NCBI GenBank assembly: GCA_015062395.1
Contig: SUUS01000002.1
Span: forward strand, 35,028-99,027
Direction: 5' to 3'
DNA from: Alphaproteobacteria bacterium
Lineage (GTDB): Bacteria; Pseudomonadota; Alphaproteobacteria; CAAHEQ01; UBA3637
DNA length: 64,000 nt
Shown here in pieces: positions 41,589-43,347 of this stretch (positions are counted from its first letter, which is position 1; each line of letters begins with the position of its first letter). The notes beneath the pieces were generated by a model, which made no database searches, was not told where the DNA came from, and saw only the letters and a list, made by a program, of their open reading frames with translations. A program made the translations under genes and the position numbers.

Positions 41589-42227
41589 ATGGTTGATGTT
41601 GTTGTTTCTTTGGAAGACAGAATAAATCGTGCGCGTATAGTTTCATGGATTTTTATGGGATTAACAGCTGTTAGCTTGTTTTTCAATGTGTTGCTTGTTT
41701 TGACTATGTTTCAAATGGGATCTCGTCTGACGGTTATGACGCAGTTATTCAACTGGTCGGGGGACACTCAAGAACTGGTGTTAAGTGACATTTTTAACAA
41801 AAATTTAGGTGATTTATCTACATTGAAAAATGCTGTGGTTCGTCGTTTTATTGAAGAAAGAAACTTTCAAATTCCAGATGAAAAAGAAATGTTGCGTCGT
41901 TGGGGACCTGCTGGTACTTTAGCGTTTTTGTATGCGCAATGGACACCCGTCGTTTCAAAGGATGATGATAAAATAAAAGACGTTTTAGAGGCTTTGCCAA
42001 CACACGCAGACAACATTCAAATAATGTCCAGTCATAATAACGTCGTTAATGTTAATTTTGATTTATGGACACATGCTAAAAAAGGGTCTTTTAAAACGAA
42101 AAAACAAGCAACAATTCATTTGGCGTTTTTGCCTGGCAGAGTTCAACAAGTAGCAACGCCTGGATTTTATTATAACCCATTGGGATTGACTGTCGTACAT
42201 TATTCTGTCGGTGATGTGAAAAAATAA
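41589..42227 (+). CDS. VirB8-like protein (paralog a)
   Basis: Short cytoplasmic N-terminus, a single TM (IFMGLTAVSLFFNVLLVLTMF), and a periplasmic domain with an RRWGP motif shared with the paralog at 42586. Confidence 0.45.
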   Translation: MVDVVVSLEDRINRARIVSWIFMGLTAVSLFFNVLLVLTMFQMGSRLTVMTQLFNWSGDTQELVLSDIFNKNLGDLSTLKNAVVRRFIEERNFQIPDEKEMLRRWGPAGTLAFLYAQWTPVVSKDDDKIKDVLEALPTHADNIQIMSSHNNVVNVNFDLWTHAKKGSFKTKKQATIHLAFLPGRVQQVATPGFYYNPLGLTVVHYSVGDVKK

Positions 42228-42251
42228 ATAATTAAGTGTTTTTTGGGTAAA

Positions 42252-42279
42252 AAAAGCTCTTTTAATAGAGCTTTTTTTA
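42252..42279 (+). terminator. Rho-independent terminator inside the T4SS island
   Basis: Stem aaaagctct/agagctttt with loop tttaat, followed by a T run. Confidence 0.5.
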
Positions 42280-42390
42280 TTTTTTATAAAAAAAAAGATA
42301 AAAAAAATGCGTTAATATAAAATTAAGTATTGTTTTCTTATAATAAACTTGCTATGCTGTAGCAAAACATAATCTATGAAAGGGGTAAAA

Positions 42391-42567
42391 ATGAAAAATA
42401 TCTTAATTTTTGGTGCGATTGTTTTAGTTGCAATGTTAATGGCTTGTGGTTCGTTGTATGAAAAGGAACCTGTTGGGATTGGTATCGATTATTCAGAATT
42501 GAAACGTTCTCCATGTGCTTGTTTGGAAGTTGAATTGATGCCTGATTTACCACAGTGGTTCTCTTAA
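42391..42567 (+). CDS. VirB7-like small lipoprotein
   Basis: Lipobox LMAC followed by GS. 58 aa. Located immediately before the VirB8b and VirB9 genes. Confidence 0.4.
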   Translation: MKNILIFGAIVLVAMLMACGSLYEKEPVGIGIDYSELKRSPCACLEVELMPDLPQWFS

Positions 42568-42585
42568 AAAATATAAGGAAAATCA

Positions 42586-43347
42586 ATGGCGTTTCTTCCC
42601 AAAACAGCTTCGTTAAGTCCAAAAGCAACTCAAGCAACATCTTCTCAAACAGTTTCAGCTGGTGAACAGGAACGTGTTTCAGAAGAAAATTTGCGTGAAC
42701 GTAGATATTTATGGACTGCACGTGCATTTGCTATCGTTTTTATTGTCAGTTTTATTACGAACATTATGATGTTAATGGCTTTATTTTCTTTGGTGCCATT
42801 GGTTCGTGTTCAGCCGTATAAATTGGTTTTTACAGATAAAAATGCGCAAACGGTGACTGTTTCACCTTTGCGTGCGAACGCAGATACGATGAAAGAAATA
42901 TCCAGCGATATGGTTCGTCAATATGTTATCGCTCGTGAAACTATCGACGCTGATCCAGAAGAAATGGCGTTTCGTTGGGGACCAGATGGAATTATTAATC
43001 TGTTATCAACAGACAATGTCTTTTTGAAATTTTCTCAAACAGCCAATGATATTTTACAAAAGGCAGTCGGAACGCAAGAAACACGTTCTGTTCATATTAA
43101 TTCTGCTATGCCATATGGTTCGGGACCAGAAGGAGAGTATTGGTTGGTGAATTATAATTTAATCAAAATGTCTCCTCAACGCACAACGCAAGAAATAACA
43201 CCTCGTGTGGCTACGTTAATTGTCGGATACGAACCATACAAAAGTATTTGGGAAAATCGTTTGAAAAATCCAGTTGGTTTCAAGGTCAGAGCATATGGTT
43301 CTGAAACAAAAGCTGAATTTGATGCAAGAGAGGGAGGACGCCAATAA
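42586..43347 (+). CDS. virB8: VirB8-like protein (paralog b)
   Basis: N-terminal cytoplasmic tail, a single TM (AFAIVFIVSFITNIMMLMALF), and a periplasmic NTF2-like-sized domain with an FRWGPDG motif. Confidence 0.5.
   Translation: MAFLPKTASLSPKATQATSSQTVSAGEQERVSEENLRERRYLWTARAFAIVFIVSFITNIMMLMALFSLVPLVRVQPYKLVFTDKNAQTVTVSPLRANADTMKEISSDMVRQYVIARETIDADPEEMAFRWGPDGIINLLSTDNVFLKFSQTANDILQKAVGTQETRSVHINSAMPYGSGPEGEYWLVNYNLIKMSPQRTTQEITPRVATLIVGYEPYKSIWENRLKNPVGFKVRAYGSETKAEFDAREGGRQ

Follow-up and report, generated by a model that had tools for sequence, protein, structure and literature searches.

The stretch of DNA considered here, referred to as the window, comprises 64,000 nucleotides (positions 35,028 to 99,027 of the forward strand of contig SUUS01000002.1, assembly GCA_015062395.1), and its host is an alphaproteobacterium of gut or rumen that has not been cultured, its metagenome-assembled genome (MAG) deriving from gut- and rumen-type metagenomes. 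Positions 41589 to 43347 hold two genes for VirB8 proteins of 212 and 253 amino acids, here called VirB8a (B8a) and VirB8b (B8b), with the gene for a 58-amino acid lipoprotein between them. We consider, with a probability of about 75%, that two adjacent operons meet in this region and that both belong to one type IV secretion system (T4SS) of the VirB type (P-type), located on the chromosome: the upstream operon contains the first five genes of the cluster, U1 to U5, followed by virB8a, the downstream or core operon has the order virB7-virB8b-virB9-virB10-virB11, and both VirB8 copies go back to one duplication which predates the clade. VirB8 is the inner-membrane scaffold on which a T4SS assembles, and the question of why Rickettsia should retain two such dissimilar VirB8 proteins has stood unanswered since 2009. 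The system is an undescribed, clade-wide variant of the VirB-type T4SS with a tandem-VirB8 layout like that of rvh, the T4SS of the Rickettsiales. Previously described only in Rickettsia, this layout is conserved here across a clade of uncultured relatives, whose loci are given L numbers below.

The VirB8 paralogs and the intervening lipoprotein

Gene virB8a (41589..42227, + strand) is the last of the upstream module and encodes the divergent VirB8; virB8b (42586..43347, + strand) encodes the canonical one. The coordinates and lengths in the initial annotation were correct, also for the lipoprotein (58 amino acids from an ATG at 42391), as was the topology it had ascribed to the two larger proteins, each of which has a single hydrophobic segment (residues 17–45 in the 212-amino acid and 42–75 in the 253-amino acid protein). 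Both are predicted to be bitopic, with a short N-terminal tail, one transmembrane helix and a periplasmic C-terminal domain. The cytoplasmic tails measure ~16 residues in VirB8a versus ~41 in VirB8b, the latter carrying an invariant LRERRYLWTARAF motif of which VirB8a keeps a remnant only. The common (R/F)RWGP motif noticed earlier reads LRRWGPAG in VirB8a (RRWGP at residues 103–107) and AFRWGPDG in VirB8b (FRWGP at 129–133), and its RW is present in both window copies and in most, though not all, copies of the relatives. A further conserved VirB8 motif, NPxG, is situated near the C-terminus (Gillespie et al. 2015, PMC4676284); it was found in 16/16 aligned sequences of both copies, as NPLG at residues 196–199 of VirB8a, invariant in the B8a family, and as NPVG at 228–231 of VirB8b, in whose family N, P and G are invariant.

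A search with the Pfam VirB8 model (PF04335), which had been proposed as a check, was positive for VirB8b (E 1.5e-12, 48.2 bits, cut-off 23.2) and fell just under the cut-off for VirB8a (E 1e-4, 22.7 bits), which nevertheless aligned with model positions 8–211 of 213; the same model is matched by 16/17 VirB8a orthologs, the best at 6.8e-13. Against the PDB, the VirB8a ortholog profile gave TrwG as its best match (E 0.013), and the VirB8b profile retrieved Bartonella VirB8 (1.7e-12), pKM101 TraE, Brucella VirB8 and TrwG; a homolog search with VirB8b yielded 483 homologs. An AlphaFold model of VirB8a based on 17 orthologs, with a predicted local distance difference test score (pLDDT) of 78, has a single long helix at the N-terminus, followed by an alpha/beta domain. 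The predicted periplasmic domain is NTF2-like, the fold of VirB8, and each of the top 19 Foldseek matches of the model belongs to the VirB8 family or is VirB8-like (DotI, IcmL). Pfam and fold searches together thus identify both proteins as VirB8-family members. The two copies align with each other beyond chance (BLASTP E 5e-7, the pairwise comparison also having been suggested at the outset), and profile-to-profile comparison of the B8a and B8b families returned a probability of 98.8% (E 6.8e-17) over 193 columns at 18% identity; on this sequence evidence VirB8a and VirB8b are paralogs.

Being the more divergent copy, and just below the Pfam threshold in this genome, VirB8a might be thought a decaying, functionless duplicate. 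This already disfavoured view is scarcely credible when set against an uninterrupted reading frame in all lineages examined, 41 invariant columns (RW and NPLG included) among 17 orthologs, retention since before the split of six lineages, and a confident predicted fold.

The lipoprotein gene (42391..42567, + strand), the first of the core operon, is preceded, 7 nt before its ATG, by an AGGGG ribosome-binding site and ends 18 nt upstream of virB8b. Its product is hydrophobic over residues 1–24, and the lipobox recognized in the initial annotation (ML-M-A-C) conforms to the signal pattern of lipoproteins; Gly occupies position +2, and the Cys is invariant in six lineages. The protein is 62–83% identical in the five relatives' lineages compared and is more conserved than VirB8b: the mature part is 50–83% identical across lineages whose VirB8b is 36–58% identical, and follows the consensus CGS.YEKEPVGIG.DYSELK(R/K/Q)SPCACLE..P.LP.W, near-invariant across six lineages. 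The segment ELK(R/K/Q)SPCAC varies at one position only, L018 and a Microvirga plasmid discussed below reading LKKSPCAC. Gillespie et al. (2009, PMC2653234) described a [KI]KSP motif plus Cys in VirB7 of Rickettsia and in ComB7, and the K(R/K)SP-Cys of the lipoprotein matches it, the likeness being one of motif only and not of alignment. The gene takes the same position before virB8 in L011, L013, L016, L018, L021, L022 and Microvirga. Its assignment to the place where virB7 belongs therefore stands, with the motif in addition, and by these sequence features the 58-amino acid protein is a predicted VirB7-type outer-membrane lipoprotein.

That it is instead some other small lipoprotein associated with T4SSs, such as an entry-exclusion factor, is an alternative which draws on two absences: neither Pfam nor NCBIfam returned any match, VirB7 included, and the canonical P[ILV]NK motif for VirB9 binding (pKM101 TraN type) occurs in none of the six orthologs. 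Exclusion proteins, however, are usually variable, and here the mature part surpasses VirB8b in conservation. The position directly before virB8 is fixed in seven systems, Microvirga included; Gly at +2 suits outer-membrane sorting; the motif is common to RvhB7 and ComB7; and the protein co-occurs with an invariant, unpaired cysteine of VirB9. We consider a function other than that of VirB7 very unlikely.

The cysteine in question is one of exactly three that are invariant in VirB9: C524 and C534 lie in a C-terminal SPOR-like domain, and C360, at the end of the CagX domain, is left unpaired beside the SPOR cysteine pair. The lipoprotein for its part has two invariant free cysteines (candidates Cys42 and Cys44). 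A disulfide between the lipoprotein and VirB9, as in A. tumefaciens, may reasonably be inferred by analogy; the lipoprotein would then anchor VirB9 to the outer membrane, possibly via a bond to Cys360.

Age of the duplication and separation of the modules

The initial annotation had described the two virB8 genes as duplicated, which holds in that they are paralogous; they are not a recent tandem copy, the duplication being ancient (~19–28% identity). This low identity and the separate ortholog clades described here rule out recent tandem duplication. The order B8a-lipoprotein-B8b-VirB9-giant VirB10-VirB11 recurs in six divergent lineages, i.e. the window, L013, L016, L018, L021 and L022. The cluster follows folD in L013/L014 (B8b 42% identical to that of the window), L016 and L018; in L021 (B8b 39% identical) it is without the upstream module; and in L022 (B8b 35–39% identical) B8a is preceded by virB4, five genes upstream, and by five unknown genes, those in between encoding exported proteins.

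A neighbour-joining tree was built from seven B8a, seven B8b and two plasmid VirB8 sequences (Microvirga, Paracaedimonas) as outgroups. B8a forms one clade (86% bootstrap), the internal branching is alike in the B8a and B8b clades, and the two together group apart from the outgroups (66–76% bootstrap). Mean identity is 29% among B8a orthologs versus 42% among B8b orthologs, and paralogs of the same genome are 19–28% identical. Because the clades are separate and their branching congruent, and in view of this identity pattern, the sequences indicate a single ancient duplication before the divergence of the clade, followed by co-inheritance, with B8a evolving faster (about 1.5 times in identity terms). 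Orthology of the copies, great age of the duplication and a gene order kept among the lineages are thereby established.

The distribution of the two copies was surveyed in several collections. Of 1.84 billion proteins searched with a hidden Markov model of B8a, only 165 representatives reached E 1e-3 or better, and these shade from B8a-type into B8b-type; searching genome contigs with a profile from the B8a alignment led to a single species-representative locus, in a Hadza-gut 'uncultured Alphaproteobacteria' MAG. With tblastn against plasmids, B8a had no match and B8b matched at 29% identity or less. One B8b cluster includes 'type IV secretion system protein virB8 [Acetobacter sp. CAG:977]' from a human-gut metagenomic species; such CAG species we take to belong to GTDB order RF32, and a literature search on T4SSs of RF32/CAG-type gut Alphaproteobacteria found nothing.

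Inside U1-U5-B8a the genes are spaced by +27, -4, -8, -4 and +6 nt, compared with 163 nt between B8a and the lipoprotein gene, the largest gap in the cluster. This spacer contains an AT-rich hairpin of 16 bp followed by U's (42245..42282, + strand; centroid -16.7 kcal/mol, z -4.3, 1/200 shuffles as good), which had been put forward as a rho-independent terminator separating VirB8a from the VirB7 gene. The hairpin and its U's are present, but it is weak and AT-rich, with 3 G-C pairs only; it was missed by a scan for consensus terminators and promoters over 41000–45500, which gave no site in the B8a-B7 spacer and counts at shuffle expectation; and it is not conserved, the equivalent ~90-nt spacers of L013, L016 and L018 having no significant hairpin. 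That 42245–42282 functions as a weak intrinsic terminator is plausible. The spacer also contains a conserved AT-rich element of 30 nt, ATTGTTTTCTTATAATAAACTTGCTATGCT (42329..42358, + strand), 30–60 nt upstream of virB7, which the window shares with L011 and L013 and, in part, with L016 and L018. It is still present in L011, whose locus is without the upstream module. No consensus sigma-70 site was called at the element, which is a candidate core-operon promoter or regulatory site.

The two modules occur at separate loci in L007–L012 and L015. In L007–L010 and L015 the U module and B8a follow folD, L007 having a strong GC-rich terminator after B8a, and in L011/L012 a lipoprotein-B8b-B9-B10 operon stands beside a parA/mipZ-like gene, at another locus than folD. 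Since the modules are physically split there, the breakpoint lies exactly at the spacer between B8a and B7, and the modules are separable. The tight gaps of the module versus the 163-nt spacer, the spacer hairpin, the kept element, the separated modules and the L007 terminator support two putative transcription units in this sub-clade.

Several observations weigh against the reading of the region as two operons of one T4SS. The window VirB8a is 0.5 bit short of the Pfam cut-off. None of U1–U5 has an above-threshold Pfam or NCBIfam match, which leaves the module proteins without a recognisable family, and that U2 is mostly helical is predicted in a low-confidence AlphaFold model only (pLDDT 40). 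VirB4, VirB6, VirB2/3 and VirD4 are absent from the 64-kb window, which was scanned for VirB4, VirB6 and VirD4. Read-through from B8a to virB7 is possible in those relatives where the modules are contiguous, because the hairpin is weak and is absent there. Lastly, B8a abuts the lipoprotein gene in L021 with no secreted-protein module upstream; B8a is therefore not strictly dependent on the U module.

The separation of the modules in several relatives could also mean that the two VirB8 proteins serve two machines, B8a belonging with the U proteins to a separate export or adhesion apparatus that is adjacent by chance. In keeping with this, B8a is translationally close-packed with U5, and B8a and the U proteins are the fast-evolving parts of the cluster versus the highly conserved B7, B9 and B11. 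Family scans, however, detected no ATPase, channel or outer-membrane component that the upstream module could call its own, and the L021 arrangement places B8a directly before the lipoprotein gene in the absence of that module. In L022, moreover, a single T4SS cluster encloses the module, with virB4 on one side of it and B8a on the other, and the matching topology of the B8a and B8b trees is what components of one system would be expected to show. Two machines thus seem unlikely to us, and we retain the single T4SS with two adjacent operons.

Gene content of the locus

ORF (open reading frame) calls and family scans define a run of 11 consecutive genes on the + strand between 35.4 and 53.6 kb. 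The upstream flank consists of the housekeeping genes lptFG-lptD (a fusion), surA, ksgA, yggU and folD and the downstream flank of typA; as the flanking genes are housekeeping genes, the locus is chromosomal. After virB11 comes typA on the opposite strand and not virD4. Identical proteins are found in an NCBI MAG (MBE6449265-76), whose VirB11 is annotated as 'hypothetical', and also in JGI and ENA metagenome contigs. One relative's locus has [FeFe]-hydrogenase-type genes, and we infer an extracellular lifestyle for the host.

The fusion in the upstream flank is a single 1078-amino acid ORF (28920-32156) which joins an LptF/LptG permease domain (residues 7–355) to LptD (residues 410–1011), and it is kept in relatives L008, L010, L016 and L018. 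It is unusual, since LptFG is an inner-membrane and LptD an outer-membrane component. At the start of the window (54-6742) are phage-like genes, among them those for a major capsid protein (Phage_capsid_2, E 1e-70) and for a capsid assembly (scaffold) protein of the T7 type. A gene for a cell-wall hydrolase and large unknown ORFs accompany them, and the whole probably represents a prophage or prophage remnant.

The upstream module begins with U1 (35410..36111, + strand), a Sec-exported protein of 233 amino acids with no predicted transmembrane segment, its only hydrophobic segment being N-terminal; it has orthologs in relatives and is a weak paralog of U2 (BLASTP E 6e-4; hhalign probability 53%). 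U2 (36139..36843, + strand) is likewise Sec-exported, with 234 amino acids, and a word-indexed homolog search found three near-identical proteins only. U3 (36840..38879, + strand), an exported protein of 679 amino acids, contains a Gly/Ser/Leu-rich tandem repeat of 39 bp (13 amino acids, LGGSGGLGNLASA) at 37502-37785, present 7.3 times. Its length is 653 amino acids in other metagenome copies and 268–790 in relatives, which suggests that U3 is hypervariable and probably surface-exposed. A Pro-rich ORF of 213 amino acids (37328-37969, - strand) runs antisense to the repeat region and is almost certainly a shadow of the U3 repeat and not a gene. U4 (38872..39657, + strand) is exported and has 261 amino acids (253 as called in metagenome copies), its weak coiled-coil-type Pfam matches all being below threshold. 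U5 (39654..41582, + strand), exported and 642 amino acids long, is kept in relatives and ends 6 nt before VirB8a. As rvhB9-I precedes rvhB8-II in Rickettsia, U5 was tried as a VirB9 and rejected, the hhalign probability against the VirB9 family being 0.1%.

U1–U4 (about 230–680 amino acids) sit at the virB5/virB6 position and might be VirB5-like; for U1 a VirB5/TrbJ-like role is conjecture. When the profiles of U1 and U2 were run against PDB sequences in search of VirB5/TraC/TrwJ, only noise resulted. U2 and several proteins of relatives start with V-(I/V)-D after the signal peptide, U1 having VVSD, and a 273-amino acid Microvirga protein, encoded three genes upstream of the lipoprotein gene, starts with ...QVPVLDSNV... 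after its signal peptide. To judge from its sequence, the Microvirga protein looks like VirB5/TrbJ.

In the core operon virB8b is followed by virB9 (43437..45059, + strand; 540 amino acids; Pfam CagX 1.6e-12). The protein is full-length, spanning positions 5–196 of the 198-position CagX model, and is 74–85% identical in L011 and L013. Its C-terminal SPOR-like, i.e. peptidoglycan-binding, domain (residues ~468–538; Pfam E 0.0028, below the cut-off) is kept in all relatives, with a weak Pfam flag also in L018. The next gene encodes a giant VirB10 of 2488 amino acids (45159..52625, + strand; Bflower_2 1e-127, TrbI 1e-33), composed of an N-terminal transmembrane segment, ~2100 amino acids of beta-flower/DUF3659 repeats and a C-terminal TrbI domain. 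Its length in relatives is between 2096 and more than 4134 amino acids; the longest, in L022 (12384-20708), runs off the locus. At 50289-51073 the gene contains a 237-bp (79-amino acid) tandem repeat present 3.3 times, and another metagenome copy of VirB10 has 2409 amino acids, exactly 79 fewer. Since that copy is shorter by one unit, repeat number differs between strains. A repeat-bearing giant VirB10 recalls CagY of H. pylori. The last gene of the core operon, virB11 (52646..53635, + strand), specifies an ATPase of the VirB11 type with 329 amino acids (T2SSE 3.5e-22), 66% identical to that of L021. The locus also draws attention to a large, unstudied T4SS of common gut and rumen Alphaproteobacteria, with a giant repeat VirB10 and a VirB9-SPOR fusion, most of whose genes are annotated as hypothetical.

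Comparison with other type IV secretion systems

The best structural template is the Trw system of R388, the VirB8a model matching TrwG of the inner-membrane complex and arches (Foldseek E 2.5e-4). According to its cryo-EM structure, each outer VirB4 subunit binds three VirB8 N-terminal tails, 18 in all, which adopt three non-equivalent conformations, and the arches are built from the periplasmic parts of VirB8, arranged as a hexamer of trimers (Mace et al. 2022, PMC9259494). R388 differs in that one VirB8 gene serves all positions and in being a conjugative plasmid with relaxase and coupling protein. By analogy with R388, VirB8b would most likely be the general scaffold, docking on VirB4 through its long conserved tail, and VirB8a most likely a specialised subunit which either takes non-equivalent places among the VirB8 subunits or acts as recruiter of the variable U proteins exported from its own operon. 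Heteromeric variation of the core had been raised in the initial annotation as a possible use of the two copies. The apparent co-transcription of the divergent copy with fast-evolving exported proteins prompts the same pair of ideas, with variable surface components as the recruits; a role of B8a in the core machine itself is suggested by L021, which keeps B8a without the U module.

Two VirB8-like proteins are also known from Legionella (DotI/DotJ) and from the Gram-positive pairs PrgD/PrgL and TraH/TraM. DotI oligomerises with its truncated paralog DotJ, a precedent for the joint use of two VirB8-like paralogs. These pairs, however, belong to other classes of T4SS (type IVB, Gram-positive), are without helix alpha5 and NPxG, and have no VirB7 gene between the copies.

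The closest annotated T4SS of a cultured organism is on plasmid pMVF16-3 of Microvirga sp. VF16 (NZ_CP069357.1, 677452-682981). There a 58-amino acid lipoprotein (677452-677628, annotated as 'hypothetical protein'), 43% identical to ours (E 1.5e-10) and containing ...DPIGIG...DLKKSPCAC..., is encoded directly before virB8, which is followed by virB9, virB10 and virB11; VirB8, VirB9 and VirB11 are 29%, 35% and 41% identical, respectively. The differences are that Microvirga has only one VirB8, of the B8b type, that its VirB10 is of normal size (590 amino acids), and that the system is plasmid-borne.

In R. typhi the rvh genes form three operons: rvhB9-I and rvhB8-II make up the first, rvhB7, rvhB8-I, rvhB9-II, rvhB10 and rvhB11 the second, and rvhD4 the third (Gillespie et al. 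2015, PMC4676284). The VirB8 paralogs are 16–19% identical, and RvhB8-II, which evolves faster and is without NPXG and helix alpha5, was stated not to be found in other bacteria (Gillespie et al. 2015, PMC4676284). Hallmarks of rvh are the duplication of B8, B9 and B4, a multicopy B6 and the lack of VirB5 (Verhoeve et al. 2024; hallmarks per PMC11077975, PMC4676284). From the duplicated virB8 the initial annotation had drawn a hint of evolutionary affinity to rvh. What remains of this is the gene order, divergent B8, then B7-canonical B8-B9-B10-B11, which is that of R. typhi; several of the hallmarks are missing. The trees being of B8a, B8b and two plasmid VirB8 sequences, the possible affinity has synteny and one short motif as its basis.

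A stronger evolutionary claim, compatible with the two-operon explanation, would be that the system is a true homolog of rvh, in which B8a/RvhB8-II, B8b/RvhB8-I and lipoprotein/RvhB7 are orthologous pairs, the duplication being common to, or exchanged with, the Rickettsiales. In its favour, two very divergent VirB8 paralogs (about 19–28% identical here, 16–19% in rvh) are encoded in adjacent operons in the same layout, the faster copy closes the upstream operon, and a lipoprotein with the K-x-S-P-Cys motif, as in Rickettsia VirB7 and ComB7, opens the downstream operon just before the canonical copy. Both loci are chromosomal, and the present one is vertically inherited, with the remaining T4SS genes elsewhere, like the scattered rvh islets.

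Against it, both copies keep NPxG here, NPLG being invariant in B8a, whereas loss of NPXG defines RvhB8-II. The VirB8a model is slightly closer to canonical VirB8 than to RvhB8-II (4o3v), and in the PDB 4o3v was not matched by the B8b profile or L018 B8a (E up to 10) or by the B8a profile (E up to 1). The place which rvhB9-I has before rvhB8-II is occupied here by U5, which is unrelated to VirB9, though the genome may have a second VirB9 outside the window; the VirB9 after B8b is full-length with a SPOR-like domain in contrast to the truncated RvhB9-II, VirB10 is giant, and virB11 is not followed by virD4. The same lipoprotein family accompanies a single VirB8 on the Microvirga plasmid, and its motif is therefore not specific to rvh; and B8a and B8b cluster together apart from the two outgroups (66% bootstrap). 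On balance we regard true homology with rvh as possible but doubtful.

If it were true, the duplication would predate the ancestor of the Rickettsiales or have been exchanged with it, and the bacteria described here would keep a less derived state, in which NPxG is preserved and B8a is linked with a hypervariable module of exported proteins, a state that could explain the original role of the enigmatic Rvh-II paralogs. A VirB8 duplication with VirB7 between the copies, until now treated as a signature of the Rickettsiales, would then perhaps also belong to a clade including the human-gut 'Acetobacter sp. CAG:977' type. Whether independent or ancestral, this second case gives comparative leverage on the paired VirB8 proteins of Rickettsia, since both copies look structurally canonical and the layout is kept across many lineages.

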